Positions 1,351 to 61,849 of a DNA stretch of 64,000 nt are shown here, piece after piece. Source of the DNA: Hydrolagus colliei (Eukaryota); contig CM068745.1 of assembly GCA_035084275.1 (NCBI GenBank), forward strand, positions 54,560,001-54,624,000, read 5' to 3'. The notes beneath the pieces were generated by a model that searched no databases, had not been told where the DNA came from, and saw only the letters and a program-made list of their open reading frames with translations. A program made the translations under genes and the position numbers. Every line of letters starts with the position of its first letter. The first letter of the stretch is position 1.

Positions 1351-2148
1351 TAACTTTTTTTCGGGACTTTCTTAAGTTGAGGTTGTCAATTTGCCAATTG
1401 TGTGACTCTCAGCTGATTTGTAAAACAGATGTTACAGTTAATGGAACAAATTTAGTTTGTGAAAATTAAATTTTTGTTCCTATTTTTGACAGTGGTGAGA
1501 ATGATAAATATTGCATGTTTTATAATTTTAGTGGCAAACAGTGCAAATCCATTGCAATACTGTACATCTGTGTTTTCAAGATAAGCTTTCATTTAACATA
1601 CATTTTTAACATACCTTTAAGAATATCAAGATGGAGACGCCAAAGAAAATCTAATGCTATTTTACCATCCCTTTCAGCATGTGTAATGTTTGCAAAGCTG
1701 GAAAGACATGAGGTAGAAGGTTGTTGCTGTACAAGTTTTTCAGCTACTGTATCTCTCTCCTACTGGTGAAATATAAAGCAGGGTTTAAATGGAATTGTTT
1801 AACCAGCAGCAAGGTGAAACTGCAAATACATGGTGTTGGATGCAGACCTGATATGACAGTGGAATCGGTCATTGCTCAATTCTGTGCTTTCGCATTGTGG
1901 AGGGCAATAGGAATGACTAAAAATCGCCACCCAGCTGTCCTTTACTGTATAAACTAGGGAACGGCGATATATCGGTATATCGCTAAAACCCGATATGATT
2001 TTCATATCGGTATGCCGATATAGACATTTTGAAAATACCGATATATCGAAAAACGATATATCGAGGTAAAAAATCGGCATGCGAGCACAATCAACTACAA
2101 GACCCAGAATGCTCATCTCTATACACAATGCACAGACCGAGGTGCAAA

Positions 2149-2160
2149 GCCGCCATCTTG
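2149..2160 (-). promoter_or_regulatory. YY1-consensus motif within the hAT element
   Basis: GCCGCCATCTTG (= CAAGATGGCGGC on minus); the other long copies have CAATATGGCGGC; motif match only, function untested. Confidence 0.35.
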
Positions 2161-2197
2161 TATTCATAGTCCTCGGATACAATATACAGGTATGCAA

Positions 2198-3200
2198 GGG
2201 GTGGGGGGAGAGAGACGGCTGTGGGTGGGGGGGGGGGGGGGTGAGGGGAAGAGAGACTGCTGGGGGGGGGGTGAGGGGGAGAGAGACGGCTGGGGGGAGG
2301 GGGAGATAGACGGCTGTGGGGGGAGGGGGGGAGAGGGGGAGAGAGACGGCTGGGGGGGGGAGAGGGGGAGAGAGACGGCTGGGGGGAGGGGGAGATAGAC
2401 GGCTGGGGGGGGGAGGGGGGGAGAGGGGGAGAGAGACGGCTGGGGGGGGGGAGAGGGGGAGAGAGACGGCTGGGGGGGGAGGAGAGGGGGAGAGACGGCT
2501 GGGGAGGGGGAGAGAGACGGCTAGGGGGGAGGGAGAGGGGGAGAGAGACGGCTGGGGGGAGGGAGAGGGGGAGAGAGACGGCTGTGGGGGAGAGGGGGAG
2601 AGAGATGGCTGGGGGGGAGAGGGGGAGAGAGATGGCTGGGGGGGAGAGGGGGAGAGAGATGGCTGGGGGGGAGAGGGGGAGAGAGACGGCTTGGTGGGAG
2701 AGAGGGGGAGAGAGACGGCTGGGGGGGGGAGGAGAGGGGGAGAGAGACGGCTGGGGGGAGGGGGAGAGAGACGGCTGGGGGGGGAGGGAGAGAGAGACGG
2801 TGAGTGGGGGAGGAGAGGGGGAGAGAGACGGCTGGTGGGGGGGAAGAGAGGGGGAGAGAGACGGCTAGGGGGAGGGGGAGAGAAATGGCTGTGGGGGGAG
2901 GGAGAGAGAGACGGCGGGGGGGGGGGGGGGAGGAGAGGGGGAGAGAGACGGCTGGGGGGATGGGGAGAGAGACGGCTGGGGGGGGAGGGAGAGAAAGACG
3001 GCGAGGGGGGAGGAGAGGGGGAGAGAGATGGCTGGGGGGAGGGGGAGAGAGACGGCTGGGGGGGGAGGGAGAGAGAGACGGCGGGGGGGTGGGGGGAGGG
3101 AGAAAGAGACGGCTGGGGGGGTGGTCGGGGAGAGAGACGACGGGGGTGGGGGGTGCGAGAGAGGGACGGCGGGGGGGTGGGGGGGGGGGAGAGACGGGGT
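2198..3200. repeat. G-rich minisatellite inside hAT copy 1 (unit approx GGGGGAGAGAGACGGCTG(n), 22-30 bp)
   Basis: dozens of tandem units with variable G-runs; equivalent arrays in copies 2, 3, 4 and 5. Confidence 0.95.
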
Positions 3201-3396
3201 GGATGTGATAATATACAGATAGATAGAGATGGGGGGATGTGAGAGAGGAGAGAGGGAGAGAGACATAGAGAGACACAGACTGAAAAACACAGAGATAGAG
3301 AGAGTGAGAGACACAGAGAGAGAAAGATATTTACCTCCTGAGAAGATAGGCCCCGAATGCGCGCGCACCCGGAATGCGCGCGCACTCCGATGCGCG

Positions 3397-3408
3397 TGCG
3401 CATGCGCA
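3397..3408. promoter_or_regulatory. NRF1-consensus palindrome within the hAT element
   Basis: TGCGCATGCGCA; TGCGCATGCG is retained in copies 2-5; motif match only. Confidence 0.35.
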
Positions 3409-4580
3409 GTACGAAAATATCGGTATTTCGGTATATCTCGATATGAGCCAACCGATATATCCATATCCGGAAAATTCCCATATCGCCGTTCCCTAGTATA
3501 AACCATTTTTGTTTTGGAGATTGCCCCTGTCAAGCTCAATTGAGTCATGAAACAGTTTAGCCCTACACAAGTCAACCAAAGTAGAATCACCCTACTTGAC
3601 TGTAGTGCTGTGGGTTCTATTTCTCCTTCACATTTATAACATGCTGCAAACGAACACAGCCAGTGCAGGCTTCTGAGCCGTGCCATTGCTCAGAAGTATG
3701 CAAACGTATTTGTTGGACTGTAGTGTAAGGTTAGCACCCATTAGTTTCAGTATCATGACATTTGTGATTTAGTTTGCAGTATTTCTTGATACAGAAATTA
3801 ATCGAGTAGAGACTTCTGATAACTGAATATATATTACGTTGGGCAACGTGAATTCTGCTTCAATAAAATCAACTACCAAAGCGGAAGTTATCATACACAA
3901 TGAACGACAACCTACATTTATATAGGTGGTGTTTAATGAAAATTTAATACAATGGAAACTTTCTTTCAAGGTTCATGCTTGTGAAGCAGTCTAGGATTCT
4001 CCATTGGTGTAAGAGAGTGAGTGAGTTGGCAGATAGTTTACTGTTCAGTAGAAGCCATGGTGTGATGGTTCTTCCTCTGCTTACTCACTCTTGCTCCTTT
4101 ATGCTTCATGATACAAGGCACATCTTGTAGTTCCACAAATCCTCTTTATAATTCAGTGCACTTGAAAGATTCCTGCTGTTTCCAAAATGTCTGTGGGGCA
4201 TTTGCAGTTTCAAATAGTGGCCTGATTTGCCCGAGTTGTTTTGGAAGAAGTTTGTATGTAGTATGTCTGCACCTCATTAGGTTGTAAAAAAACTGCCACA
4301 AATTCAAGTACTGAGACGAAGTAACAATTATGAAGTTCAAGAAATTAGTACAATAATGATTATAGAGGTCAAGCACTCCATTTTTCTGACTTCCCTGGAG
4401 AAGTAGCTTCTTTTGGTGTCTTTCCTGTTAGAGTTGTGCAATGAAGAGGAGATACGTGTTGACTCGCAATACACAATTCCCTTCAATTACACTATGTGTA
4501 CCTCAACAAAGCAATATGGTTTTCAAAAAGCAGTTCCCATAAATGTTATTTAAAATATAAACTAGACCTACATGTCTCTC

Positions 4581-4601
4581 AGCTGAATACAGTATTCAGC
4601 T
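4581..4601. repeat. short perfect palindrome
   Basis: agctgaatac-a-gtattcagct. Confidence 0.8.
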
Positions 4602-4699
4602 TGAAGAAACCATAAATCAAAGCAGCTATCACAAGACCTTTCCAAAATGATTTCAATAGTCTGAAAGCTGAGTGTGTGTCTGTGCTGGGAGGTGATCTA

Positions 4700-4745
4700 A
4701 TGGCTATCCATTTCTTTGTGGTTAAACAAAGAAATGGATAGCCAT
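4700..4745. repeat. perfect 20-bp inverted repeat with 6-nt loop
   Basis: atggctatccatttctttgt-ggttaa-acaaagaaatggatagccat. Confidence 0.95.
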
Positions 4746-5194
4746 GAGAGTGGTATTTGTGTCTCCAACCAGTGCCTAGTGTTATCTCTTGAGTTGTTCC
4801 GCATTACTGATGCCATTTGGAGAGGCTTCACTTGTGAAGGAGACAAAATGATCTGATCTCATTCTTGACATTACCCTCTTGTGAGATGTGAGTATTGGAT
4901 TATTTCCTATCTGTAACATTACCGAGTGCCTGGAAGCATATAAGCAGATTCTCAAAAACCATATGTGCCCTCTCAAAAGTGACTGTCCTACAATAGAAGC
5001 TTTTGCACTCTGTCTTAAAAATAAAAATAACCAATCAGGAGAGTACAGAGAGATTGACCAGGAGGTTTCAATGAAGTCCCTTCAATATCTTTGGTCTGTC
5101 CTTCCTGCAGCAACAATGTCTGTGGGTTTTAGGACTCCAGATCATGAAAAGTTTTGGAACGCTTGTTTTATTTATGTGAGAGAAAAAGATGTTG

Positions 5195-5480
5195 AGGGAT
5201 AATATGATCCACATGCTTAAAGTGCTGAGAAGAATAGATTGTGTAGATAAAAGCAGATTTCACTTAGATTTTGAGCTCAAACTCAAAGGACACAAGTAGA
5301 GAATTAAAGAAGCCTCAAGTGAAAGTTCTTTCCCAAAACCCATGAGTGGATATATGAAGTAGACTTCAATAGAGAAAAGAAGGTCAATTAGAAAAATTGA
5401 GAAGCATATATGTAGAGATTGTGAAATATTTGCTGGCTAGAGCAGTGATGCCTTGTATTGACCTATTAACACACTAGACT
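5195..5480 (+). mobile_element. degenerate CR1 LINE 3' fragment
   Basis: ttgagggataatatgat...actcaaaggacacaag...ttctttcccaa resembles the CR1 ORF2 C-terminal/3' region. Confidence 0.4.
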
Positions 5481-5861
5481 GTAGAAAGTAGGAATGTGAG
5501 TTAACTTATCTCACTTCAGCATAGTCACACTATCAGATCTTGACCTCAGATCCATCAATAGATCTGATTTTACTATCAAATGGGATGAATATTAATCATT
5601 CAGACTAGCTATAAAGTTGAAGATGTAATATGTGACACTGTGGGAGCAGTCTTAAGAAGCAAAATATTAAAATATTTAAAATATTCAAACACTTGCAAAC
5701 AGCATGCTATGTATCACACATTGCAACTTCCACATGAACCTGGAGCAGCAAATGACTTGTGTCTTCCAGACATACACTGTCATTATCACTCCTGTCAAGT
5801 GGCCCATTGGTTGAGGCAGGGAATTTCCGCAAAGTTGGGCTAAATTAGTTTGTGTGAAGTT

Positions 5862-5965
5862 AGAATCATAGAATCATAGAAGTTTTCTGCACAAAATGAG
5901 GCCATTCGGCCCATGGAATCTGTGCCGCTCTTTGAAATGAGCTATTCAAAGTCAATCCCATATCC
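5862..5965 (-). mobile_element. CR1 LINE 3' tail
   Basis: (agaatcat)2 octamer terminal repeat followed by gaggccattcggcccat, typical of CR1 3' ends read in reverse. Confidence 0.65.
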
Positions 5966-7700: not shown

Positions 7701-7724
7701 TATTGGGACAATTTAGGACAAGTC

Positions 7725-8973: not shown

Positions 8974-9285
8974 GGAATCCTATAGCTCAATGGTTAGAGC
9001 ACTCATTTTGCAACCGAGAGACCCAAATTTTATTAGAGGTAGGGAGAAACCATGGGCAAGTTTCCTTACTCCACACACCTAATAATAATCTCTCAAATTT
9101 GTTTTTGTCACACTCAGTCCATGATTGTTTGTGGGATACTACTGTGCGCAATTGGCTGCCACATTTGCCCACAAATATACAGTCAATTTACTTTGCAGAA
9201 TATTCTATAAAGAGCTTTGGGACATCTAGAAGATGTGAAAAGTGACATATCAAATGCAAGGATTATTATTATGATTATTATTATT
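8974..9285 (+). mobile_element. SINE family A, full length
   Basis: tagctcaatggttagagc head through aatgcaaggattattatt tail; collinear with 412-736. Confidence 0.85.
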
Positions 9286-9841
9286 TGTAGTCCATTCAGA
9301 AATGTGTTTTTCACGTTTTGATGGAACCATAAATAATAATGAATAATCATTCCATTTGATATAAGGCCTAATCACATCTTTGAGACATTTCAAAGAGCTT
9401 CATAGAATATATTGTAAAGTAAGTGTATGACTGTATATTTTGTTGACAGGCAATTAGTGTACAACAGTATCCCAAAACATACTCCAATGATAGGAAAAGG
9501 TGTCGATTTCACCTACAGGAAAGAAGAAAGGGAGGGAGAATATTGAAAGAAGAAAAAACACATTTTGTGCAGATTCGTATAATTTCACAGCATTTGATAA
9601 AAGTAATTTGTATATCATGAGCAGAACCTTGGGATTCCCTCATAATTTGATAGGCCTGCATGGCTACAGGCTGAGCATGTTAAGGTACTATTATAGTCTC
9701 AAAAGATACTATGGTCTCAAAAGAGCACTTTGTCATCAAACAATATAATTGTTTTTATAAATTGATATTATTGTTGAATAGTGAGGCTGGTAAGGTGGTA
9801 AGTGAGGACCAAGGGGACACTATCACGGACCCGTGAAAAGG

Positions 9842-10426
9842 TCTATTCAACACATCATCCATAGAAACTTCCATCACCTGCAATGTGACCCATCCACCAA
9901 GGATATATTTCTCTCCCCTCCCTTCTCCGCATTCCGAAGGGACCGTTCCCTCCGGGATTCTCTGGTCCACTCTGCTGTCAGCACCATCAGCTGCTCTCCT
10001 TCCTCTGGCACCTTCCCGTGCCAGTGCAGGAGATGTAATACCTGCCCTTTCACCTCCACCCAAACCACTCTCCAGTGGCCAAAACACAGCTTCCATGTGA
10101 GACAGTGGTTCACATGTACTACCACCAATGTAATATACTGCATCCGCTGCTCACGGTGTGGTCTCCTCTACATTGGGGAGACTAAGCGCAGATTGGGAGA
10201 CCGATTTGCAGAGCATCTTCGCTCTGTACGGTAGGTCAATCCTGATCTTCCAGTTTCCCTCCATTTCAACTTGCACTCACATTCAGAGGCTGATCTTTCG
10301 ATCCATGGTCGCCTGCGCTGTTCCAGTGACCCACAGCGAAAGCTTGACGAACAGCACCTCATCTATCTACTAGTGACACTATAGCCGTCTGGCCTCAACA
10401 TTGATTTCAGCCATTTCAGCCCATAG
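9842..10426 (+). pseudogene. Penelope ORF C-terminus: linker Zn-finger + GIY-YIG endonuclease, disrupted by in-frame stops
   Basis: FPCQCRRCNTCPF...VIYCIRCSRCGLLYIGETKRRLGDRFAEHLRSVR*, continuing in frame VNPDLPVSLHFN...RKLDEQHLIYLLVTL*PSGLNIDFSHFSP*. Confidence 0.9.
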
Positions 10427-12171: not shown

Positions 12172-13002
12172 TAGGGTCCGTCGATATGGAAATTTTCTGA
12201 TTTAGATATATCGATGGGCTCATATGGAGATATACCGAAATATCGATATTTTGGGGGTTTTCGTACTGCGCATGCGTAGTGCATTCGGAGTGCGCGCGCA
12301 TTCGGGGTGCGCACGCGTTCCGGGTGCGCGCGCATTCGGGGCCTATCTCCTCAGGAGGTAAATATATTTCTCTCTGTGTCTCTGACTTTCTCCATCTCTG
12401 TGTTTTTGTCCCCCCCCCCCCCCGCCACCGTCCCTCTCTCCTCCCGCCGCCGTCCCTCTCTCGCACCCCCCACCCCAGTCGTCTCTCTCCCCCCACCATT
12501 CCCCCAGCCGTCTCTTTCCCCCTCCCCCCCCACCGTCTCTCTCTCCCTCCCACCCCCCCAGCCGTCTCTCTCCCCCCCACCAAGCCGTCTCTCTCCCAAC
12601 CCCCTAGCCGTCTCTCTCCCACCCCCCCCAGCCGTCTCTCTCCCCATCCCCCCAGCCGTCTCTCTCCCCCTCCCCCCAACCGTCTCTCTCCCCCTCCCCC
12701 CAGCCGATTCTCTCCCCCTCCCCCAGCTGTCTCTCTCCCCCTCACGCCCCCCCCCCGCCCCACCCCTTGCATACCTGTATATTGTATTCTAGGACTATGA
12801 ATACAATATGGCGGCTTTGCACCTCGGTCTGTGCATTGTGTATAGAGATGAGCATTCTGGGTCTTGTAGTTCAGTGTGAGCGCATTCTGATATTTTACCT
12901 CGATATATCGACTTTTCGATATATCGATATTTTTCAAATGCCTATATCGGCGTATCGATATGAAAATTATATCGGGTTTTAGTGATATATTGCCGGACCC
13001 TA
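12172..13002 (+). mobile_element. non-autonomous hAT, copy 2 (TIR subtype B), 831 bp
   Basis: TAGGGTCCGTCGATAT ... ATATTGCCGGACCCTA; perfect TSD GTTCATTG (12164-12171 and 13003-13010); shorter minisatellite. Confidence 0.95.
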
Positions 13003-13810: not shown

Positions 13811-13814
13811 TTTC

Positions 13815-21025: not shown

Positions 21026-22012
21026 CAGGTATCCCGTCCCAACTGTGGCCTCGTCAACCATGAAACTCATGTATCCACGGTTTGCTAAATGTGACAACCC
21101 TTGCTCACCACAGCTTAACATTTTCCATGGGTTTTAATACTAACGCTAGCGTTTAGTGCTAGGACCCAGTTGCATCAACCGGCTTCGTGCCAGCGTCTGG
21201 CGCTAGGACCCAGTTGCGATGTCGCAATCGATCAGCGAGATGTTGCTTCTCTTTTAGGATTAAGGTAAATCTCTGTTGATTTCTCTCTCTCTCTCTCTCT
21301 CTTTCTGTGTCTGTGTCTCTCTGTGTCTGCAGATCCTGGCAGCCAATGCTCCCAAACTTACCTCCCCCTATCAGCATGTTACCCACTACACCAGCTTCTG
21401 CATCTCCCCGCCCACCCACACCCCCCACCCACCCTCCGTGTCACCCACCACACCACCTACTGCACACCACCCCCACCCTCCATGTCACCCCCCCACCCTC
21501 CATGACACCCACACCCCCACCCTCCGTGTCACCCCCCCCCATCGTCTGTGTCACCCAGCCCCCCCCACCCTCCGTATCACCCACCACACCATCTACTGCA
21601 CACACGCCCCACCACCCTCTATGTCACCACCCCCACCCTCCTTATCAGCCCTCTACACTACGTGTCACCCACCCCACACTCTCCATGTCACCCCTCCCCA
21701 CCCTCCATGTTACCTAACCCACCCACCCTCTGCGTCACCCACCATGATTTCTCTCTCTCTCTTTCTCTGTGTAGATTAGTCAGTCAGACAGCCTCGCGGA
21801 TTGCTGCAGATCCTGGCAGCCCATGCGCACAAACCTACTCCCCCTATCCCCATGTATGTTATAGCTGTACGTGTTTTTTTGTGTTTAGTTCCACGAAATG
21901 CAAACTCCCCTATCCCCATGTTTCCCATAGGGCCCTGCATTTTCCAACCGCGATTTTACCAACCACCGAGGTTTAGAGGAACGTATCCCCCGCGGTTGGG
22001 GAGGGATACCTG
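21026..22012. mobile_element. Tc1/mariner (Tigger/pogo-like) non-autonomous element with internal C-rich minisatellite, 987 bp
   Basis: TA-CAGGTATCCCGTCCCAACTGTGG ... CCGCGGTTGGGGAGGGATACCTG-TA: about 23-bp TIR, TA TSD; internal ccaccctccatgtcacc-type array at about 21400-21745. Confidence 0.9.
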
Positions 22013-23814: not shown

Positions 23815-24890
23815 ATTTTGCTCTAGACTCGACCACGCCATTCTCCTCCACTACCTCTCCTCACTTAGCCCCTTAGTTGGACCACCTTTGCATGGTTCGA
23901 GTCTTACCTAAACAACTGCTTCTATTTCATCTTTGCAAATTGTTTTGCCTCCTGCCCCACCGGTCACCTGCAGGGCACCAACGGCTCCATCTTTGGCCTA
24001 GTTTTTGTTTGTCTATATAGTGCATTTGATATAGTGCTTTCCACATTTTCAAGATGTCTCAACATGCTTCATAGACTATATTATAAAGTGAATTGACTAT
24101 ATATTTGTGGGCGAAACGTGGCAGCCAATTGTGCATAGGAATGTCACACAAGCAGTTGTGGATTGAAATGTCCAATTTTTTTTTCTTGAGGGATTTTTAT
24201 CAGGCATGTGGAGTAAGGAAAATTGCCCAAGGTTTTGCCCAGTCTGGAATTCAATCCAGGTCTCTCTCTTGTAAGGTGAGTGCTCTAACCATTGAGCTCC
24301 TCTTCACTCTGGGCGATGTCATCCACAAACATGGGTAAAGTTCCACATGTTTGATGATGACACACAAATCTACTTTGCCTCCTCCACTAAGAACACCAGG
24401 TGTTCTATCAGCTTTCCTTCATGGCCTGGATCAGTGTAAACTTCCTGCAGCTGAATGTGGAAAAGACAGAAGCCATACTCCTTGGTTCCCGTCAACTCCT
24501 GTGGAACTCAGCTTCTCAACCTCCCTGGCCTCTTCTTTAGACTCAACGAATCAGTGCACATTCTAGGCATTTGGTTCAACCCCCCAGCTGTCTCTTCTCC
24601 CCAGATCCGGGACCTGACCAGGATCACTTTTTTCCACATACACCGCATTGGTCGACTCCGATCGTACCTTACCCCAAATGCAGCTCAAACTCTTGTGCAT
24701 GCGTTTGTCACCTCCTGCTTGGACTACCCAAGTACACCTTACTGCTCATTCAGAACACCAAAAGATTCAGCTCATTCAGAACACCAATGTCCACATACTT
24801 CACCTGCTAAGGGAGAGGCTCTGCCACATTTAAGCGCTCTGAAACTCTACCGTGTGTGGGGGGGCGCAATATAAGTAAAATATTTTGTTG
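23815..24890 (+). mobile_element. L2 LINE RT/3' fragment interrupted by a SINE
   Basis: gaccacgccattctcctcc (DHAILL), ...FFHIHRIGRLRSYLTPNAAQTLVHAFVTSCLDY, tail aagcgctct...ttttgttgt. Confidence 0.8.
24015..24299 (-). mobile_element. SINE family A nested in L2
   Basis: gcatttgatatagtgc ... gtgctctaaccattgagct. Confidence 0.85.
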
Positions 24891-26946: not shown

Positions 26947-28415
26947 TAGGGAATGGCAATATGGGAATTTCCCGATATGGATATATCGGTTGGCTCATAT
27001 CGACATATACCGATCTATCGATATTTTTGTTTTTTTCGTACTGCGCATGCGCGCGCGCATCGGAGTGCGCGCGCATTCCGGGTGAGCGCGCACTCGGGGC
27101 CTATCTTCTCAGGAGGTAAATATCTTTCTCTCTCTGTGTCTCTCACTCTCTCCATCTCTGTGTTTTTCTGTCTGTGTGTCTGTGTGTCTCTCTCCCTCTC
27201 TCCTCTCTCACATCCCCCCCCATCTCTACCTATCTGTATATTATCACATCCACCCCGTCTCTCTCCCCCCCCCCCCTCTCTCGCACCCCCCACCCCCGTT
27301 GTCTCTCTCCCCACCCCCCCCCAGCCGTCTCTTTCTCCCTCCCCCCCCAGCCGTCTCTCTCACACCCCCAACCGTCTTTCTCCCCCCAGCTGTCTCTCTC
27401 CCCCTCCCCCCAGCCGTCTCTCTCCCCCTCGCCCCAGCCGTCTCTCTCCCCCTCCCTCCAGCCGTCTCTTTCCTCCTCTCCTCCCCCCCCCAGCCGTATC
27501 TCTCCCCCTCTCCTCCCCCCCCAAGCCGTCTCTCTCCCCCTCTCCCCCCCCCAGCCGTCTCTCTCCCCCTCTCCCCCCCCCCAGCCGTCTCTCTCCCCCT
27601 CAACCCCCCCCAGCCGTCTCTCTCCCCCTCTCCTCCCCCCCCCAGCCGTCTCTCTCCCCCTCACCCCCCCAGCTGTCACTCTCCCCCTCACCCCCCCCCC
27701 CCAGCTGTCTCTCTCCCCCTCACCCCCCCCAGCAGTCTCTCTCCCCCTCTCCTCCCCCCCCACAGCCGTCTCTCTCCCCCTCTCCCCTCCCCCCAGCGGT
27801 CTCTCTCCCCCTCACCCCCCCCAGCCGTCTCTCTCCCCCTCACCCCCCCCCAGTGGTCTCTCTCCCCCTCACCCCCCACCCCCCCCAGCTGTCTCTCTTC
27901 CCCTCAACCCCCCCCCCCAGCAGTCTCTCTCCCCCTCACCCCCCCCCCCCAGCCGTCTCTCTCCCCCTCACCCCCCCCAGCAGTCTCTCTCCCCCTCACC
28001 CCTCCCCCCCAGCCATCTCTCTCCCCCTCACCCCCAACCCCCCCCCCCCCCCCCCCAGCCGTATCTCTCCCCCTCTCCTCCCCCCAGCCGTCTATCTCCC
28101 CTCACCACCCCCCCAGCTGTCTCTCACCCCCTCACCCTCCCACCCCCAGCCGTCTCTCTCACCCCCCAGCCCTTGCATACCTGTATATTGTATTCGAGGA
28201 CTGTGAATACAATATGGCGGCTTTGCACCTCGGTCTGTGCATTGTGTATAGAGATGAGCATTCTGGGTCTTGTAGTTCAGTGTGCTCGCATCCCGATTTT
28301 TTACCTCGATATACCGTTTTTCGATATATCGATATTTTTTAAACGTCTATATCGGCATATCGATATGAAAATCATATCGGGTTTCAGCGATATATCGACA
28401 TATCGCCGTTCCCTA
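26947..28415 (+). mobile_element. non-autonomous hAT, copy 3 (TIR subtype A), 1469 bp
   Basis: TAGGGAATGGCAATAT (CpG-decayed) ... ATATCGCCGTTCCCTA; perfect TSD TATCATAC (26939-26946 and 28416-28423). Confidence 0.95.
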
Positions 28416-28852: not shown

Positions 28853-30352
28853 TTGAACTTGATTCTATTTGTTCACTGCGCTACTATGTGGACATTATAG
28901 AAGAAAAATAAATGTATGTCATGTGTTACGAATGGCTGTGAGCAATAAATCATAAATGTTATCTTCCCAGACATTAATACGAGTCAATGCCATTACTAAC
29001 TGTTTTGATTTACCACTGGTCTGCTTATAGTGTAGAATTGCTCTATCCTGGAAGTGTAGGACATTCAACTCCAGTGCTGAGTGGCCAGTAGGGTCCGTCG
29101 ATATGGAAATTTTTCGATTAAATATATTGAAGGGCTCATATCGAGATATACCGAAATATCGATATTTTGGGGTTTTCGAACTGCGCATGCGCGTTCCGGG
29201 TGCGCGCGCATTCCAGGTGCGCGCGCTTTCGGCGCCTACCTCCTCAGGAGGTAAATATCTTTCTCTCTCTGTGTCTCTCACTCTCTCCATCTCTGTGTTT
29301 TTCTGTCTGTGTGTCTCTGTGTCTCTCTCCCTCTCTCCTCTCTCACATCCCCCCCATCTCTATCTATCTGTATATTATCACATCCACCCCGTCTCTCCCA
29401 CCCACCCCCCCGCCGTCCCTCTCTCGCACCCCCCACCCCCGTCGTCTCTCTCCCCCACCACCCCGCCAGCCGTCTCTTTCTCCCTCCCCCACGCCGTCTC
29501 TCTCCCCCCCCCCCCCTCCCCCCCTCCCCCCCTCCCCCCAGCTGTCTCTCTCCCCCTCTCCTCCCCACCACCCAGCCATCTCTCTCCCCCCCCCCCCGCC
29601 GTCTCTCTCCCCCTCCCCCCAGCCGTCTCTCTCTCCCCCCCAGCCATCTCTCTCCCCCTCCCCCCAGCCGTCCCTCTCCCCCCAGCTGTCTCTCTCCCCC
29701 TCTCCTCCCCCCCCAGCCGTCTCTCTCCCCCTTCCCTCAGCCGTCCCTCTCCCCATCTCCTCCCCCCACAGCCATCCCTCTCCCCCTCCCCCCAGCCGTC
29801 TCTCTCCCCCTCCCCCCAGCCGCCTCTCTCCCCCTCCCCCCAGCCGCCTCTCTCCCCCTCTCCCCCTTTCCCCCCCCCCCAGCCATCTCTCTCCCCCTCC
29901 CCCCTGCCGTCTCTCTCCCCCTCACCACCCCACCCCCAGCCATCTCTTCCCCCCCCCCCCCCCCCCTCACCCCTTGCATACCTGTATATTGTATTCGGGG
30001 ACTATGAATACAATATGGCGGCTTTGCACCTCGGTCTGTGCATTGTGTATCGAGATGAGCATTCTGGGTCTTGCAGTTCGGTGTGCTCGCATCCCGATTT
30101 TTCCCCTCGATATATAGATTTTTCGATATATCGATATTTTTGAAATGTCTATATCGGCTTATCGATATGAAAATTATATCGGGTTTTAGCGATATATCGA
30201 TATATCGCCGGACCCTACTGGCCAGCTTTGCATGGTATAAAAGGTGTTGCTGATATCACTTCATGGAGGAAGTGGGGTCAGAGGTATTTCTTGAACTTGA
30301 TTCTATTTGTTCATTGCAATATTATGTGGACATCACAAAGGAAAAATAAATG
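28853..30352 (+). repeat. pair of diverged 62-bp direct repeats (28853-28914 and 30291-30352)
   Basis: ttgaacttgattctatttgttcaYtgc...tatgtggacat...gaaaaataaatg occurs twice. Confidence 0.85.
29089..30217 (+). mobile_element. non-autonomous hAT, copy 4 (TIR subtype B), 1129 bp
   Basis: TAGGGTCCGTCGATAT ... ATATCGCCGGACCCTA; TSD GTGGCCAG / CTGGCCAG (7 of 8). Confidence 0.95.
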
Positions 30353-37512: not shown

Positions 37513-37974
37513 CAGATACATTTCACACCTCGGTGGTTTTTGCCACCAATTGCAAATATTGCAAATTACACACCTATAGCACTGAATTGGAATTCTACAG
37601 TGCAATGAGTTGACCTGTTCCAGAGAGATTTAACAAGAAGTGGCAGCGGCAGCAGATACATTGGAAACATTGCTTCACTGAGAAAAAAAGATCTGCAACA
37701 CTTCAAATATATTTTGAGATTTTCCATAAAATGTGTTGCAACAGGATCCCAAAAGACTTTAGAAGATGCAGGCCTCAAATTCATATTCATTGTTTACATC
37801 TGCAATGGCATGATATTAGTAGCATCTACAGATTTGTTTAAATTCTGAGGTACTACTTTGAATAATGCATTATTTAAATGTTAAGTTTTTTTTCTGTACT
37901 TTCATCACATTGATGTATTGCCAACACCATTCCAAAATATAATTTTCTGGGATGAATGGTTGTAAAAGTTATAT

Positions 37975-38295
37975 AATAAATATAATAATCCTTGAATTTG
38001 ATATAGCGCTTTTTCACGTCTTCTAGACGTCTCAAAGCGCTTCACAGAATATACTGTAAAGTGAATTGACCATATATTTATGGGCAAAACACGGTAGCCA
38101 ATTGCAAACAGCAGTGTCCCACAAACAGTCATGGATTGAAATGACCAATTTTATTATTGTGGTTTTTTTGGAGGGATTATTATTATATCTGTGGAGTAAG
38201 AAAAGTTGCCCAATGTTTCGCCCTGACCTGCCTGGATTTGAACACAGGTCTCACACTTGTAAGGCAAGTGCTCTAACCACTGAACTACAGGACTC
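37975..38295 (-). mobile_element. SINE family A, full length, well preserved
   Basis: aataatccttgaatttgatatagcgc ... gtgctctaaccactgaactacaggactc. Confidence 0.9.
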
Positions 38296-41600: not shown

Positions 41601-42758
41601 AAATAAATCAGTAAATCAATAAATCAATAGATCAATAAATGATGTTGACTTTCTACAAGACTATCAATGGCAGATTGCAATAAGGAGGTGGGGTCCCCCT
41701 AAATCCCAATTGAAATACTTTTGTGCACATCTGTTCAGAAGAACCAGTGAAGATTTCAAGCTACTTAAAATTCTTTTTTTAATTTACACAATAATTTTAG
41801 AAAGATTACCAAAAGCATGTCATAATCTTGTTGTGTAAGCATAATGATGTTTGGTAATAATTCTGAAGCATTCTGCAACATGTTACGTGTGACACAGGGC
41901 TTCTTCTTTATTATGTCTACCATGGAGTGTGCTTCACAGTTCCAGAAAACATAACGTGCCTTTTGTAGTTGTATTCATTTTCCATTGCACAATCACTCAG
42001 TGCTTGTAGTGCTCAGGGCTGCAATGACAAATTAGTGCAGATAAATGTGGAATTAGAGAGCAACTTGGCACTGTGAACACAAATTCATTGCTTTCAGCAT
42101 TCTTAGGAACTGTCAGAGAGAGGAGAGCATCATCTCCTTGTCTGCACGGCAAGGTGACAGGATGGAGTTTTAATTGTGTCACCCACTTGGCCCAAAGTTA
42201 ACTCATTTTCCAAATGGCAGCCCTGCATCTCAGGAGCTCCAGCCAAGGGCCACAACTAATGTAAAATGAGGATGATTAACGAATGAGCAACATTGATGGT
42301 GTAAAATAGATCAGCGGTCCATTATTGTCAAGTCAAGACCTAATCCATATGATGCATTAATGAAGTAACATATGAAGGAAACAATTCCACATAATCCAGT
42401 GCCTTTTTCAACCGAGCATTTGTTGCTGATAGAAAGCAGATAATATTGAACTGCATATTAAGAAAATAAAACTGAAAGCGGTAAAGATCACTGGGCTTAA
42501 CAAAATACATATTTTTAACAAGGTTTAATGTTTTATTTCATTTGTGTTGTCTATGATCTCTGGATATACATTTTTCATATTTTCAATACTTAGATCACAA
42601 AAAGATTTGAATCAAACGTTCGAAGGATGGAGCTCATCACTTCGCCAACACTGAAATGTGATAGATATATATTTTAGCATAGCCGTTATCTTAAATTTGA
42701 CTCATTAGCTACCATTATATCATCTGCGTAGAACCAAAGTAGAGGGTTAAAAAGAAGG

Positions 42759-45075
42759 TGTCCTGACACCTTCAAAGAGTCATTAACACAAATCCCCAGG
42801 TCTCTCTGTTCCCTCACACTCCTTAAAATTGTGCTATTTAACCTACATTGCCTCCCCTCATTTCTTCTCCCAAAATGTATCACCTCACACTTCTCTGCAT
42901 TAAACTTCATCTGCCGTGTGTCTGCCCACTTTACCATTTTATCTATATCTTGTTGCAGATGGTTACTATCCTCCTCACTATTTACTATTCTCCCTAACTT
43001 AGTATCATCTGCAAACTTGGAAACTGTGCTCCCTGCACTGAAGTCCAGATCATTAATATATATTAAAAAGAGCAGTGGCCCCAATACCGATCCCTGAGGG
43101 ACGCCACTGCACACTTCCCTCCAGTCTGAAAAACAGTCGCTCACCACAACTCGCTGCTTTCTGTCTCACAGCCAGTTGTGGATCCAGGCTGCCACTGTCA
43201 CTTTAATGCCGTGGGCCTCTACTTTCTTAAAAATCCTCTTATGCGGCACTTTGTCAATACCTTTTGAAAGTCCATATAAACTACATCAACTGCGCTAAAC
43301 TCGTCCACCCATTCCATTACCTCATTGAAAAATTCTATCAGATTTGTAAGGCAAGATTTGCCTATAACAAATCCATGCTGGCTGTCCTTTATTAGCCTAT
43401 ATCCTTCTAAGTGAAGATCTATCTTGTCCCTGATTGTAGACTCTAGAAGTTTGCCCACTACCAACGTTAGACTGACTGGCCTGCAGTTCCCAGGTTTGTC
43501 CTTCTCCCCTTTTTATACAGGGGCGTAACATTAGCAACCTTCCAGTCCTCTGGCACCACCCCTGTGTCCAAGGAAGATTGAAAGATCGTAGCCAGGGTCT
43601 CTGCTATTTGCTCCCGTACTTCCCTTAGTAACCTAGGATGCATCCCATCTGGACTGTGACCTATCTACCTTGAGCGCCATCAACCTTTTTAGTACTTCCT
43701 ATCTATTGATACTAATCCTATCCATTTCTTCTACCCTCTCCTCCAATACTGTAGCATTGGCTGCATCCTCTTCTCTTGTGAAGACAGAGGCAAAGTACAC
43801 ATTCAGCCATACTGTCCGCCTCCACAATAAGATTTCCTCCTTGACCCCTAATTGGCCCCACCGTACCCTTGACCACTATTTTTACTCTTAATATGTATGT
43901 AAAATACCTTAGGGTTCCCTTTAATGTTACCTGCTAATTGTTTCTCATGCAGTCTTTTTGCCCCTCTAATTTCCTTTTTCAGTTCTCTCCTGCATTTCCT
44001 ATATTCTGCTTGGTTGACCTCTGTATCTTGGGCCTGGCACTTGTCATAAGCCTCCTTTTTTTGCTTTATTTTAACCCAAATTGCCCTAGTCATTCAGGTA
44101 GGTTTGAATGCTCTACATTTTATCTTTGTTGGAATGTTTTTGACCTGTGCCCGAACTATCTTTGCCTTGAAGACTGCCCACTGCTTGTTAGCTGTTTTAC
44201 CTGCCAATCGTTCTTTCCAGTCCACCAGAACGGCTAGGTCCCGTTTTAACTCACTGAAATTAGCCTTCTTCAAGTTGAGTGTCTTCTCCTTTGAGTATTC
44301 CTTATCCCTTTCCATAATTACTCTGAATCTATTTATATTGTGATCACTATTTCCTAGGTGCTCACCTACAGAAACCTTGCCCACCCCATTCCCCAAAACT
44401 AGATCCAGCACTGCTTCCTTCCTTGCTGGACTGGAAACATACTTATCAAGAAAGTTGTCCTGTACACATTTCAGGAATTCTTCTCCTTCCTTGCCCTTTA
44501 CACTACTATTCTGCCAGTCGATGTTGGGAAAATTAAAGTCTCCCATTATCACTACTCATTGGCTTTGCATCTTTCCGAAATCCGCTTACAGATTTGCTCT
44601 TCTATCTCTTTCCCACTATTTGGTGGTCACTAGTATACCCCTAACAGTGTAACTGCTCATTTTTTATTCCTTATCTGTAACCAGATAGCTTCGGTTTTTT
44701 GGCCTTCTTTCACCTTGTTTCTTTCTAAGGCTGTAACTGAGTCTTTAACTAATATTGCCACTCCGCCTCCTTTTCTCCCCCTTCTCTATCCCACCCGAAT
44801 ACATTATAGCCAGGAATGTTGAGTTCCCATTCTTGCCCTTGTTTGAGCCAGGTCCCTGTTACTGCTACCACATCATATCCCCTTGCAGCAAGTAGAGCCT
44901 ACAGCTCACCAATTTTATTTGTCAAACTCCATGCATTTACATACATGCACTCCAAGACAGAATTCACCTGTTCTGTACTTTTCTCCTGTCCTACCCCTCT
45001 CCTCGTCCCCTGTCTTACCTCTCCCATAACTGAACTACTGTTTGCATTCCCATTCCCCCTCAAAATTAGTTTTAA
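42759..45075 (-). mobile_element. CR1 LINE, decayed ORF2 (APE endonuclease + RT), 3' end missing
   Basis: CMYVNAWSLTNK (APE start, about 44950), IMGDFNFPNIDW, LGNSDHN, QHGFVIGKSCLTNLIEFF, GVPQGSVLGPLLFLIYINDLD, SKFADDTKLG; multiple stops and frameshifts. Confidence 0.95.
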
Positions 45076-51127: not shown

Positions 51128-51724
51128 CAGGTAGACTCCGCTTAACGAAGGGGTTAGGGACGTTAAAACCCTTCGTTAAGCGAAAATTTTATTAAGCAAG
51201 AGTTTAACTGTATTACTTGTATTTGGCCACAGCCGAAACGCCACCCCGCATTCTGAAGTCAGGAAATACGCGAACCTGGGCTCGGCTATGGGCCTGAATT
51301 CAAGACGCTCAACCTGTACTAATGAAGGCCTAAGGTAGATATAACTGCTGTTGAAGGCTACACAACTTTAAATACAACAATAAAATATTAAAATGTTAGT
51401 AAATACAACAATAAACAATAAAATACAGACAGTCCTCAACTTACTATTATTGAAGCCACGAAGCATCCTGCCACTTAGCTCCTCCCATATGGGAGGGGCT
51501 GCACTGCACTGCTTAACTGAGGCACGCTAAGACTGTGTTGCAGGGGCAACCGGTGAGACGCCACCGATGAGAAGCTGCACACGAGAAGCCTGCAAAATTT
51601 CAAGTGTGTGTAAACATTTGTTATAGCGAATGCAGCCTTTGTTAAGCGGATAAGTGGTACAAATAGAAACCCTTGTTATAGTGAACTTTCGTTAACCGGG
51701 TATTCGGTAATTGGGGTCTACCTG
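51128..51724. mobile_element. Tigger/pogo-like MITE, 597 bp
   Basis: TA-CAGGTAGACTCCGCTTAACGAA ... TTCGGTAATTGGGGTCTACCTG-TA; subterminal GTTAAGCG-type repeats. Confidence 0.85.
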
Positions 51725-53874: not shown

Positions 53875-54006
53875 AGTAAGTGGCTATGTGGCGCATTTTG
53901 CCCAGAACTATATTCAATTCACTTCAAAGTATATTCCGTGAGGTGCTTTGAAATGACTAGAAGTCATGAAAAGTGCTATATCAAATGCAAGTATTATTAT
54001 TATTAT
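53875..54006 (+). mobile_element. SINE family A 3' fragment
   Basis: caattcacttcaaagtatattccgtgagg...aaatgcaagtattattattatta. Confidence 0.7.
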
Positions 54007-56050: not shown

Positions 56051-57631
56051 GCAGCCTTTAGCTATAATCTTAGCAAAACGGGAGTCAGTGTATTCATAGT
56101 TAATTGCATCTAGTTCCATTCCATTTTATTGATTCCAGGGCATGAGCTCTGTCCTGTGCTATCCAGCAGTTTTAATCTCACAAAAGGGTAATAATTCTGC
56201 AGTCGGGGCCAAGATGAGAGAGAAGAAGCATTTAGCCATTGAGTAATGTAGCTGAAAGCATTCTTGTGGTAATAAAGGACCACAAGAAGCCCTTAGAAAA
56301 CTATAGGAATAATTTCCTTGAGAAGTGCATGTTTATGCAACAAAACAAATTCCCTCAAAGCAGTTATTGCAGAAGTTTGGGATCCGATTTGACAAAATGT
56401 TGTAGGATGTTCAGTTAAGCTCTTACTGTGATGTACAGTTATCCCATGCATCAGAGGTATATGGGATCATTTTAATGAGTGATTTAACCCTTCAAAGCTC
56501 ATGCTGTGTCTAGCCTGTGTATACAAATGGTCTGAAGCTGCTATCATGCAGCAGATGTATCATGCATGCCACATGCTCAGGAATGCACAAAGCGATTGCA
56601 GTCCTTAGAGACGGTAGCTGAAACTGCTCAAAGGTACCAGCCACATTTATATTATAGCATTACCCCCAAAAGCAGCCTCTTTATTCTGCCACAGTACTGT
56701 AGTCTAAATGAGGTGGTGACACTGCCTCTAGAGCAACTGACTGTTCTTTTCCCATTGTAGGATTTCTCTTCTAATCATCTCTTTAATGCTGGTGTTACAG
56801 GTTTATATCACTGACCTGTATAATTTTCTCCACACAGTGGAAGTAAATCAAAATGACTATTCACAGTTTTTAAACTAATAAGCAGCTGCAAATGAACCTA
56901 GGCAGGTTATGTGTTGCTGCCAATTGTGGTGGATTTCACCGGTAGTTCAAATAGGTCATTTCCACAGAACACTTAGGGACCTGTGGCACCACTACTATTC
57001 AAAGGAGCTCTGCATTAGTTCACATGGTGCAATATATTCTGCAATAATTATATCAACATTACTTACCAAAATAACCGTTAAGATTTGTGGTAACCTGATT
57101 TCTCCTGACACTTGAAACACATCAGTGTTTTTCAGTGAATGTTTTTTGAGGGAGGTTTACTTTCTCTTGAGAATTGTTGTTAGCTATGTTTTGCTGAGCT
57201 GGGATGCAGAAGGGACTGCATTGCTTTCCAGCTGTTTTTCCGGGTGGGTACTGCAATTTCAAATAAACAGCGTAGCCTTCTGCCAAATGGGAAAAGCTAC
57301 AGTTGTACTGCTTAAATCATTATGTGGCAATGCATCATTTCAATACAAAGCACTGCGAATTTAAGTTGACATTTGAAATAGATTTGAGTGAGTTTATTTA
57401 GTGAGTAACTTACCCATATAAACTCAGAAAGTTCTACGCTTGATCCCTGGTCTGAACTCAATGAGCAAATCTCAACTCAGGCAAGTATAAAGTCAATGCA
57501 GTAACCTCAGGGCCTAGGTGTGAAGGGAGGAGAGATATCAACCAACATTCCTCTGATCACTACAGAGATCTCTAACGGTGGTACACATGTGTAGACATTA
57601 GCTGAGTGCAGAACTGAGCATTGCTGTCTGC

Positions 57632-57945
57632 TAGGATCCGGCGATATATCGATATAACGGTTATATCCGATATAATTTCATATCGATATGTCATTTCCGG
57701 CGATATATCAGTATATATCGGTATAATGCAGACTTTTCCAACTTACCTTGTCAATATCTGAATGTGCGTGCACCCCGGAATACGCGTGCATATGCGCAGG
57801 ACAAAAAAAAACCGCGATATCGATATATTGATATATTGAAAATGTTGATATATCGATATATGTCAATATATCGCGATCTCGATATATCGGTAAATATCGA
57901 TATGGGCAGACCGATATATCGATTTCGGAAAATTTCCAGACCCTA
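57632..57945 (-). mobile_element. hAT copy 6, 314-bp short derivative without minisatellite (B-like)
   Basis: TAGGATCCGGCGATAT ... CCAGACCCTA; TSD CTGTCTGC / CTATCTGC (7 of 8); dense CGATAT repeats. Confidence 0.85.
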
Positions 57946-58029
57946 CTATCTGCAGTCAAATAACTTCCTAACTCTCACTAGTAAGGCTCAGACATGAATA
58001 ATGACCATTCAGGTGAGGTATTGGAGATA

Positions 58030-58441
58030 CAGGTAGACTCCGCTTAACGTCATTTTTGGTTCTTGAAAAGTGCGACTTTAAGCAAAACGACATTAAGCAA
58101 ATACATTTTTCCCATAAGAATGAATGGAAAAACCTGAGTAAGGTTCTTTTGGACATTTTTCATCAAAATTGTCTTTTTTAAAAATATATAATACTCACTC
58201 CCTGCCTGGCTCATTCACTCGCTCCTTGACTGCCTGCCCGGCTCACTCACTCACCGCCGGTCTCACTCGCTGCCGGCTTGGCTCACTCCCAGGTCCTACC
58301 ACCATCGTGTCCACTTTCCACCCCCGCGAACGATGTAAAAGCGAACATCGCAATGTTAAATAGTTATATGTTTCCAATGTATCAACAACGTGATAACAAA
58401 ATATCACGTTAAGCGGGGCAACGTTAAGTGGGGTCTACCTA
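58030..58441. mobile_element. Tigger/pogo-like MITE, 412 bp
   Basis: TA-CAGGTAGACTCCGCTTAACGT ... ACGTTAAGTGGGGTCTACCTA-TA; same TIR as 51128-51724; internal ctcactc(a/g)c repeats. Confidence 0.85.
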
Positions 58442-59254
58442 TAATCCGGAATCCATCAAAACTTTGCCCAGAAATAGGGAAAAGAGTCACAAGGCAGGAG
58501 GGGAATAATACCACACTTGAAGTAGTAATGATGTATTTGGGAGTTTGGTTAAGAAAAAAAATGGTTAAATTGTTCAGGATGTTGCACGAAATATAAGCAA
58601 AAAATCAGCAGAAACTTCAGGAAAAAAACAACTGGGTATCTCTTTGCTTACATTTCTAGGATTTGTTTCTCCACACAGGAACCTTGTAAATGAAAACCGT
58701 GTTCAAAAATAATGTATGTTTTGAAACTGCAAGCACTCTGGTGATTTACTGATAAACACATGCCAATAACTCTACCTGTAGGCTATCTTTGTTTAAGTAA
58801 AGTGCCTCTTCTGAAGAAGGGACTATGTTTTTCATGCACATCAGTATTTGGTGTCAACACTTCTTAAGTGATTAGTGCTGTTTGACAGATGGATCATACC
58901 CTGTTGGAAACAACAGATGCATATGCTTGAATGACAAGTTTAATCTCAGTTTCAATATAAAAAGCACTGCAGGGAAGATAATCACAAGTACTGGTTCATC
59001 TTTAATGCATTAAACTACTTTATAACCCTTTCAGTATTTAGATATACAATCTATGCTCAAAGCACACAAGAGCATAACAACAGTAAATTTACACCATGAA
59101 ACATATTCTAAGTAATCAGGATTGTTTTCAGAGATCGCTTTTTGAAATACTTAATGAAAAAAGAAATATATCATTAATAGACTATATCAAGGGGAATTAT
59201 TTCTCAAATACATAGCATAAAGATTCTGGCCAATTGCCACAGTCCTGAGATGAA

Positions 59255-59672
59255 CAATAATCCTTCATAATGCTTGCATTTGGTATAGTGTCTTTCATGT
59301 TCGGAGGACATCCCAAAGCGCTTCACAGGATTTACTGTGAAGTGAAGTGACTATTTGTGAACAAACTTTGCATCCATTGCACACAGCAATGTCCCACAAA
59401 GATCAATGAAGTGAATGACCATTATAAATAATTGTTTGGAGGGATTGTTGGTCACAATCCTGGGAGAACCAGAATTCCCTTCACTTTTGAATAATGCCAT
59501 GGGATCTTGACATCTACTTGTAAAGACAAATGGACCTTGGTTTAACATCTCATCCGAAAGATTGCATTATCGACAATGCAACGACATTTGAATGTCATCA
59601 TAGACAATGTGGGTTCAAGTTGAACCCACGACCTTTTGGCTCAAAGGCAAGAGTGCTGCCACTGAGCCAGGT
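59255..59672 (-). mobile_element. SINE family B (DeuSINE-like), near full length
   Basis: tail ggacatcccaaagcgcttcacag, gcacacagcaatgtcccacaaa, gccatgggatctt, gaacccacgaccttttggctcaaaggcaagagtgct. Confidence 0.8.
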
Positions 59673-60707
59673 TGAAGCACAATTGCCTCAAGGGTGAAGG
59701 GAACTATTTATTGTTTCAATGACAGAAGGCACCGGGATGACATTGGATTCCAGGATTATAACCTGATGTTCATATGCTGTTGCCAGAAATAGCCAGTTAC
59801 CAATAAAGCAGAGAATCCCACAGAGAAAACAAACTGACTGTTCCAGGTTATTCAAATGGCGAGGGTTGAGAACTGCAGATTCAACTTGGTTCATGAAGCT
59901 GTTTGCTGTAGATAATTATTAATGAGTCATTTGGTGCTAATGAGACAACACTTTTGGTGTCAATATGTTGCAACTTCAACAAGTGCCAAATTCAAGACGA
60001 CTTGTTGATTAAAATCTTTACATGGATTAATTATTTTCTGAATTTACCAAAAGCTTGAATCATTCAAATATTTAAAGATGTTACAGATTACATTTCCCCA
60101 ATCCTTTTACAAGTGTAAAATTTGAATAGCATCAAAAAGTCCTATCTGCCGAAAAGCATCTGTGAATTTCTAATGGTACATTTTATAAAGTAAATTTAGA
60201 GATTGGGACCATGAAATACTTTCAATCCACAGATTTAAATTTGGTTATGCTGTATTTTTCTCATTGTTTCCAGTATGAGTTTATTGTTGCATCGGTTTGA
60301 TACAGCATACAACATAAATCTGGTACCAAGCCAAATATAGTAGTTCAGACTTTAAAAACGCAGTGAAGCTGCTTTTCCGTGAACTACAATTTCAATGCAG
60401 AGATCCATGGGGTAGTGCAGGTACTCATAGCTATTCTACTCAAGTTTGCAGGTCGTTCTGACAGCTTAATGGTTGCTGCAAAACAGATTCAAGTGCAACT
60501 ATTTGAAAAAAAGTTTGAGTTGAGTTGGGTTGAGTCATGACCAACATTGCTGGGGAAATTTCCAAGCGTGGAATGTTCCATGATTAATTAAAGATGTGAT
60601 AATTAATTATCATATACAATAAAACAAAAATAATCACCCTAATAATATAGTGTCTTTGGGATGTTCGGGAGTTCATCCCAAAGCACTTCAAAGTACTTGC
60701 TGGGCAC

Positions 60708-61849
60708 TAGGGAACGGCGATATGGGAATTTCCCGATATGTATATATCGGTTGGATCATATCGAGATATACCGAAATATCGATATTTTCCGTTTTTTTGT
60801 ACTGCGCATGCGCTCGCGCAGCGGAGTGCACGCGCATTTCGGGTGCACGCGCATTCGGGGCCTATCTTCTCAGGAGGTAAATATATTTCTCTCTCTGTGT
60901 CTCTCACTCTCTCCATCTCTGTGTTTTTCTGTCTGTGTCTCTCTATGTCTCTCTACCTCTCTCCTCTCTCACATTCCCCCCCATCTCTATCTATCTGTAT
61001 ATTATCACATCCACCCTGTCACTCCCCCCCCCCCCCCCCCCGCCGTCCCTCTCTCGCACCCCCCCCCCCGGCGTCTCTCTCTCCCTCCCCCCCCAGCCGT
61101 CACTCTCCCCCTCCCCCCAGCCGTCTCTCTCCCCCTCTCCTCCCTCCCCCTGCCAACTCTCTCCACCCCCCCCAGCCGTCTCTCTCCCCCTCTCCCCCCC
61201 CCCCAGCCGTCTCTCTCCCCCTCTCCCCCCCCTCGAGCCGTCTCTCTCCCCCTCTCCCCCCCAGCCATCTCTCTTCCCCTCTCCCCCCCCCAGCCGTCTC
61301 TCTCCCCCTCTCCCCCCCCCCAGCCGTCTCTCTCCCCCTCTCCCCCCAGCCGTCTCTCTCCCCCTCTCCCCCCCCCAGCCGTCTCTCTCCCCCTCCCCCC
61401 AGCCATCTCTCTCCCCCTCTCCTCCTCCCCCCAGCCGTCTCTCTCCCCCTCTCCTCCCCCCCCCAGCCATCTCTCTCCCCCTCTCCTCCTCCCCCCAGCC
61501 GTCTCTCTCCCCCTCACCCCCCCCCCCACAGCCGTCTCTCTCCCCTTCACCCCCCCCAGCAGTCTCTCTCCCCCTCACCCCCCACCCACAGCAGTCTGTC
61601 TTCCCCCACCCCTTGCATACCTGTATATTGTATTCTAGGACTATGAATACAATATGGCGGCTTTGCACCTCGGTCTGTGTATAGAGATGAGCATTCTGGG
61701 TCTTGTAGTTCAGTGTGTGCGCATTCCGATTTTTTCCCTCGATATATCGATTTTTCGATATCTCGATATTTGTTAAATGCCTATATCGGCATATCGCTAT
61801 GAAAATTATATTGGGATTTAGCGATATATCGATATATCGCCGGACCCTA
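60708..61849 (+). mobile_element. non-autonomous hAT, copy 5: chimeric A-left/B-right, 1142 bp, no TSD
   Basis: left TAGGGAACGGCGATAT, right ATATCGCCGGACCCTA; flanks CTGGGCAC and GTGAATAT do not match. Confidence 0.9.

Follow-up and report, generated by a model that had tools for sequence, protein, structure and literature searches.

The 64,000-nucleotide stretch analysed here (Hydrolagus colliei contig CM068745.1, positions 54,560,001 to 54,624,000; hereafter the window) contains six insertions with hAT-type ends, five of which are long copies of a DNA transposon family built around a G-rich minisatellite. All six elements listed in a sequence-only reading of the window were located at the lengths it gave, covering 10% of the window. 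Its count of five elements with 8-bp target-site duplications (TSDs) also held, with three at 8/8, two at 7/8 and none at copy 6 (Table 1). The general layout is a 245-bp arm, the G-rich array and a 290-bp arm, and the G-rich strand corresponds to the transposase sense of the parent element. Minisatellite units are 24-32 bp. Two types of terminal inverted repeat (TIR) occur, TAGGGAACGGCG in subfamily A and TAGGGTCCG(G/T)CG in subfamily B. They are 16-17 bp long and are followed by CGATAT/ATATCG subterminal repeats, which fits the short TIRs (5-27 bp) of hAT elements. The arms were said to be shared by all six copies. This is true of the five long ones, at ~80-93% identity, whereas the 314-bp element matches these only over ~60 terminal bp at 83-88%. 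Since it lacks an array, shares only termini with the long copies, and array-less elements with the same ends are common, we assign it to a sister family. Its size fits a strict MITE (miniature inverted-repeat transposable element). Complete copies of the long family span 586-3,556 bp (median 983, n = 156), outside the short and uniform length of strict MITEs.

Table 1. Elements of the window (for the long copies, strand is that of the G-rich strand)
Feature	Position	Strand	Description
Copy 1	1955..3495	+	Subfamily A, 1541 bp; TAGGGAACGGCG TIRs at both ends; TSD GTATAAAC, 8/8
Copy 1 minisatellite	2199..3197	+	~34 units, each of 24-32 bp, with GAGAGAGACGGCTG as core and G runs
Copy 2	12172..13002	-	Subfamily B, 831 bp; TIR TAGGGTCCG; TSD GTTCATTG, 8/8; internal deletion reaching from the array to within the arm's TC-rich part
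Copy 2 minisatellite	12410..12765	-	~13 units
Copy 3	26947..28415	-	Subfamily A, 1469 bp; TSD TATCATAC, 8/8
Copy 3 minisatellite	27255..28170	-	~31 units
Copy 4	29089..30217	-	Subfamily B, 1129 bp; TSD GTGGCCAG/CTGGCCAG, 7/8
Copy 4 minisatellite	29389..29970	-	~19 units
Short sister-family MITE	57632..57945	+	B-like ends, 314 bp; TSD 7/8; no array
Copy 6	60708..61849	-	A/B chimera, 1142 bp; no TSD (3/8)
Copy 6 minisatellite	61018..61607	-	~19 units; probable exchange site
TA-flanked transposon	21026-22012		Unrelated; CAGGTA...TACCTG ends, Tc1/pogo-like; own C-rich minisatellite of 20-24 bp
TA-flanked transposons	51128-51724; from 58031		CAGGTAGAC ends, Tigger/pogo-like; the first without a G-rich array
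300-bp SINE-like repeat	413-736; 8975-9282; 24021-24298; 37973-38295; 62312-62628; others		Many copies
Penelope-like GIY-YIG fragment	9806-10234		Below the Pfam cut-off; broken
LINE reverse-transcriptase fragment	42686-43165		Broken

The arms of all long copies carry short motifs, placed in copy 1 at window positions 2094-2111, 2149-2159 and 3397-3408. They resemble the consensus sites of ZNF143 (ACTACAAGACCCAGAATGC), YY1 (AAGATGGCGGC in subfamily A, AATATGGCGGC in B) and NRF1 (TGCGCATGCGC). The same 9-mer, CTGTATATT, lies near both array borders (in copy 3 at approximately 27235-27243 and 28181-28189), and may be a scar of array capture or a chance match.

Arm 23-mers matched the host assembly (G000, 1,003 Mb) 9,603 and 8,891 times at up to two mismatches, with no match for the reversed controls. 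The family has about 9,000-10,000 copies and makes up near 1% of the genome at the median length of 983 bp. Mean density (~9,600 copies in 1,003 Mb) is 0.6 copies per 64 kb, so the family, which had been called dense, reaches ~10% coverage only locally. Because ~5-8 windows with at least five copies are expected by chance, the window is simply a dense patch, an event of the upper tail. Local hopping was rejected as the cause of the cluster, given that the window copies are not one another's nearest relatives and that chance predicts several such windows.

TSDs of at least 6/8 flank 152 of the 156 complete copies; the other four have none. The duplicated sites follow nTnnnnAn: position 2 is T and position 7 is A in 172/214 strand readings from 107 TSDs. 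This pattern is the target-site consensus of Ac elements. The consensus given for Buster elements is nnnTAnnn (PMC3517528).

The sequence-only reading had proposed looking for a transposase-coding element with the same TIRs, and such elements exist. When the genome was searched with the hAT dimerisation domain, 136 matches came up, and 11 of the best loci were examined at 10 kb. The partner elements are 4.8 kb long, with three exons and a BED/DDE protein of ~640 aa. One (L093:5155-9986) has A-type TAGGGAACGGCG TIRs at both ends within a perfect TSD, TAATACAG, and another (L096:5090-9887) has B-type TAGGGTCCG TIRs and a 7/8 TSD. The protein scores as zf-BED (E 1e-7) and Dimer_Tnp_hAT (E 7e-20), and the motifs MDMWSS, TTDNG, CFGH, RWGS and SSPSERLFS are found among the copies, as expected of a hAT transposase with a BED finger, DDE core, CxxH and C-terminal dimerisation domain. 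Exon 1 is 37-50% identical to 15 database proteins, of which the one that is named is ZBED1-like (42%); ZBED1 belongs to the Ac family (PMC3606216). The match to Hermes transposase is weak. With a TIR-sharing transposase partner and the nTnnnnAn target site, the family is a non-autonomous hAT of Ac type, as had been proposed. Literature searches, which did not extend to subscription papers, supplements, Dfam or Repbase, returned no named family that matches it.

The outer 45-60 bp carry the same series of variants in family and partner, among them a common 1-bp insertion and, at both ends, a TC to AA change; further in, the two differ. These shared, co-varying termini suggest that ends have been exchanged between partner and passenger, in one direction or the other, and that this transposase likely mobilised the family in trans. 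Several observations weigh against so close a relation. Homology to the partner is confined to ~100-150 terminal bp at 73-86%, and the partner holds a purine repeat different from the family array. None of the 11 partner loci combines an ATG with all catalytic motifs: the frame of L096 is open with catalytic motifs altered, while L092 has the motifs and starts with ACG. Derivation of the array from the partner's purine repeat found no support, as the unit differs and the matches are low-complexity ones of only ~70%. The array is a passenger, with no sign here of benefit to transposition or host, and the family is mostly an ordinary non-autonomous hAT with a hitch-hiking tandem repeat, of a known kind.

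Two further observations concern the partner and its relatives. A relic internal terminus lies ~900 bp before the present 3′ end (L093:9055-9986, L096:9018-9887), which suggests that an older element captured a new end; the added 3′ piece contains a GGAGGGAGAGAAGGAGAG-like purine minisatellite on the same strand as the family G array. A 1.2-kb sister family with TAGTGTCC/TAGGGTCC ends keeps the exon for the hAT dimerisation domain (L032, L033, L043, L049, L050).

The long copies differ mostly in their arrays, as the sequence-only reading had noted from five of them. Of the length variance in complete copies, array length accounts for 99.6% in A (n = 28) and 98.4% in B (n = 73). Across 169 of the ~9,600 copies, nearly all from contig C1, arrays span 46-3,033 bp, or ~1 to >100 units, and one array is longer than the 3.7-kb stretch fetched. 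The median is 647 bp for subfamily A (n = 55) against 356 bp for subfamily B (n = 114; p 1e-7). The long open frames that run across the arrays were rejected as coding, being artefacts of stop-poor repeats in several frames. The terminal units at both array ends are fixed in order and the middle is variable. Internal block duplication built the longest arrays, in which stretches of 114-184 bp recur exactly. Among the 148 unit variants with exactly two occurrences, 42 have both in one copy against 1.6 expected, and in 17/169 copies a variant unseen in the other sampled copies is repeated within the copy. Because copy-private variants are locally duplicated, duplication followed copy-specific mutation, which suggests that arrays grew after insertion, at their present sites. 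Against this placement, an unsampled parent copy may already have carried the duplicated private variants. The local duplications lend support to the claim of a length-unstable locus. Array length shows no signal of arm relatedness in A (p 0.23) and a weak one in B (p 0.013), and does not correlate with age within either subfamily. Lower summed depth over the array in two runs of related fish (X6 and X7) was set aside, since depth is no copy number and drop-out of G-rich DNA is likely. In two copies (L088, L089), the array is preceded by a long (CCAT)n microsatellite that has expanded from the short TCTA tract at this place. The arrays offer many candidate polymorphic markers for this fish.

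G-quadruplex (G4) formation is predicted for every array: G4Hunter reaches at least 2 in 169/169, and loops of 1-3 nt are present in 150/169. Within the 64 kb, 1,538/1,656 windows at this threshold fall inside the elements. Short-loop G4s reportedly destabilise minisatellites in yeast, and G4 motifs are known in retroelements (PMC6614823). The G strand, described earlier as nearly all purine, is 84-88% purine with longest pure runs of 21-43 nt, and homopurine mirror repeats with arms of at least 10 nt occur in only two of the five long window copies (longest 14). Of the proposed G4- and H-DNA-prone character, the first part is upheld in silico. The second has weak support, since the homopurine mirror repeats fall short of a long tract. 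The family supplies roughly 9 Mb of predicted G4 DNA.

We consider it probable that this is a non-autonomous Ac-type hAT family of ~9,000-10,000 copies with a BED/DDE partner of matching termini as its likely mobiliser in trans, and with a minisatellite that ranges from ~1 to >100 units, likely by slippage and unequal exchange at forks stalled by predicted G4s. In this scheme, a G4 in the array would stall replication forks, and slippage and unequal exchange at the stalled forks would let the array grow or shrink. G4 folding could also lead to one-sided loss of the arm lying 5′ on the G strand.

Breakage at the array was examined in two samples. The first comprised, for the left border, the first 100 copies on contig C1 anchored there and, for the right border, 95 of the first 100. 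Among left-anchored copies, 18/100 break from the array towards the 5′ side of the G strand; 11 of these have no right arm in the next 1.5-5.3 kb, and seven are internal, with 64-226 bp of arm lost at breakpoints that all differ. Among right-anchored copies, the left border is lost in 7/95 (five internal, two outright). Six of the seven internal deletions, those with an intact left TIR, retain the TSD, and microhomology of 1-3 nt is possible at several junctions. One copy with an insertion in the array and an intact TSD (L117) was removed from both break counts; the insertion is the 300-bp SINE-like repeat also found in the window. On inspection by eye, six right-anchored copies that had initially been scored as deleted (L081, L083, L088, L089, L116, L149) were taken to have an intact border. 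The second sample comprised A ends beyond 24.7 Mb, of which 69 paired ends were judged by position only; two copies (L323, L295) that ran off the fetched stretch were excluded.

Both the length changes and the one-sided losses could instead arise at transposition. After a transposase cut, gap repair from the sister chromatid might slip or abort within the repeat, or cleavage at the 5′ TIR alone, with subsequent end joining, might delete that arm. Textbooks trace internally deleted DNA transposons to abortive gap repair. This origin would suit the seven internal deletions that keep both TIRs, with the TSD kept in the six that have an intact left TIR, and the deleted partner derivatives that carry TSDs (L301, L104). 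Strand-skewed arrays in other DNA transposons, namely the TA-flanked minisatellite element of the window and the 3′ region of the partner, would likewise fit a general slippage in repair. However, 11 of the 18 first-sample breaks pass the TIR into the flank, which gap repair from an intact template would not do. All seven internal breakpoints differ, so none has spread as a subfamily in the sample, and the duplicated CpG decay and other private variants imply duplication after residence. We judge transposition, in both variants together, to be a possible source but not the favoured one.

Counting truncations only, the arm 5′ of the G strand was lost in 16/179 and the other arm in 3/178 of the pooled copies (p 0.0035), the pool including the first sample, which had suggested the idea of polarity. 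Genome-wide mid-arm word counts lean in the same direction (9,603 versus 8,891, ratio 1.08), where detection rates (95/100, 91/95) predict 0.99 under symmetry and the local samples predict ~1.13-1.16. Other results weigh against polarity. The second sample alone is not significant (5/79 versus 1/83, p 0.11), and no clear polarity is seen among internal deletions with both TIRs retained (7/100 versus 5/95). Border words occur 8,373 (left) and 8,767 (right) times, a ratio of 0.955 where ~1.09 was predicted; a labile microsatellite at the left border may or may not explain this contrary count. Per base, the array breaks about as often as the adjacent arm (11/100 over ~450 bp versus 6/95 over 246 bp).

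The absence of a border excess, the second-sample result and the even break density would all be expected of an ordinary slippage-prone minisatellite that suffers background deletions, with the apparent polarity due to sampling noise or to selection against a promoter-like arm. The lost arm does bear the YY1-like and ZNF143-like motifs. The pooled truncations and the mid-arm ratio run counter to this explanation, which we find plausible yet short of an even chance. On balance, we lean slightly towards the one-sided breakage being real. That G4 folding is its cause is a more tentative proposition, which we rate somewhat below even.

Copy 6 bears on recombination between copies. With 6 mismatches against A and 13 against B, its arm at 60708 is of subfamily A, while the arm ending at 61849 is of subfamily B (6 against B, 18 against A). 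Both junctions are present in contigs from two samples of the same organism. Run X6 of a related fish (~2.5-3% diverged in the flanks) has the B-type right junction, and in X6 and X7 the left flank runs on at 60707 into other DNA, for which no match was found in the host assembly at up to two mismatches. Copy 6 is most likely a recombinational deletion between neighbouring A and B copies. An A copy would have landed beside an older B copy, and exchange through shared sequence inside the array would have been followed by loss of the DNA between them. In the sister species, this predicts that CTGGGCAC is followed by an empty site, then by 215 bp or more of other DNA and a whole B copy with TSD GTGAATAT. 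Against this reading stands the chance of an assembly join, as copy 6 is bridged by no contig. The three other copies without a TSD (L308, L243, L316, the last within a local duplication) fit the same recombination process.

Array lengths, chimeras and truncations could more generally be artefacts of long-read assembly in G/GA-rich, low-complexity DNA. Homopolymer runs vary strongly, and no contig from the sample runs spans an array. However, variant-unit order is conserved at both array ends, block duplications are diagnostic, matching TSDs flank 152/156 copies, both copy 6 junctions recur in two samples, and truncated copies continue into unique DNA rather than gaps. An assembly origin is therefore very improbable.

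The 156 complete copies include 92 with B/B ends, 56 with A/A ends and four B/A hybrids with TSDs, next to the four copies without TSD. The hybrids (L322, L329, L333, L337), each with one B-type and one A-type end and an intact TSD, moved as hybrids and look like intermediates in a change of TIR type. Divergence is 2.4% at non-CpG and 5% at CpG sites in subfamily A (n = 29), and 3.3% and 12% in subfamily B (n = 82); one copy with a mis-called end (L130) was excluded. A is younger with longer arrays, and B is older with shorter arrays. The proposal of a recent burst agrees with the 2-3% non-CpG divergence. It needs qualifying for B: since the B-type end of copy 6 is found in the related species, at least part of the B burst predates a species split.

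The hominid SVA elements likewise carry a mobile, GC-rich, length-variable and G4-prone array (their variable-number tandem repeat) to thousands of loci. Unlike this TIR-bearing DNA transposon, they are retroelements that depend on L1 and have a poly(A) tail. Similar to hAT MITEs such as the Buster-type Drosophila Mar (PMC3517528), the family has short TIRs, 8-bp TSDs, no coding capacity and many copies, and its interior is non-homologous to a partner with BED, DDE and hAT dimerisation domains. It differs from Mar and Buster in its TSD (nTnnnnAn here, nnnTAnnn there; PMC3517528), from the AT-rich filler of hAT MITEs in its G/C-skewed minisatellite interior of 0.05-3 kb, and from the usual MITE size at 0.6-3.6 kb. 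Tandem-repeat MITEs are known as Xmix/Xstir of Xenopus, miDNA4, the lepidopteran (GTCY)n MITEs and the pearl-like elements of bivalves, in which, as here, a non-autonomous class II element spreads an internal repeat that amplifies within copies (PMC9659126). The examples in that review's table fall outside hAT-Ac, and the review does not describe them as G4-forming; in the present family, sampled arrays remain below ~3.5 kb and show no block of satellite scale.

Deletions at G4s in C. elegans dog-1 mutants have a 3′ junction that abuts the G4 and a 5′ junction 50-300 bp away (PMC4654259). The breaks described here resemble these in having one junction at the G tract and, to the extent that the polarity is real, a 5′-side loss of tens to hundreds of bases, and the arrays resemble CEB1-type unstable minisatellites in their short-loop G4 motifs in tandem (PMC6614823, PMC2673046). 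The dog-1 and CEB1 results come from helicase mutants or ligand-treated yeast, whereas the present ones come from a wild vertebrate genome, with fixed or segregating events and G4s that are predicted only. Literature searches, which did not cover subscription papers or supplements, found no polar G4 deletions read from vertebrate transposon copies. In its broadest form, which we regard as doubtful, the interpretation would be that ~9,600 near-identical, randomly oriented copies of a G4 array record worm-type one-sided deletions in a wild-type vertebrate germ line, with arm and flank lost at ~1/10 insertions, while the family preserved its mobility by repeated takeovers of the outer 45-60 bp at the evolving transposase element's ends. 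The family provides a test bed, since it offers one G4-prone array in thousands of copies, within the germ line of a normal vertebrate, with TSDs, two arms and dated subfamilies as built-in markers and array-less sister families as controls. It allows G4 bias in deletions and array growth, mostly studied in mutant worms and yeast, to be counted.

Other repeats of the window are listed in Table 1. An end similar to that of the TA-flanked element with the C-rich minisatellite lies directly before the partner element L096, and strand-skewed arrays appear to arise in several of the transposon families here.

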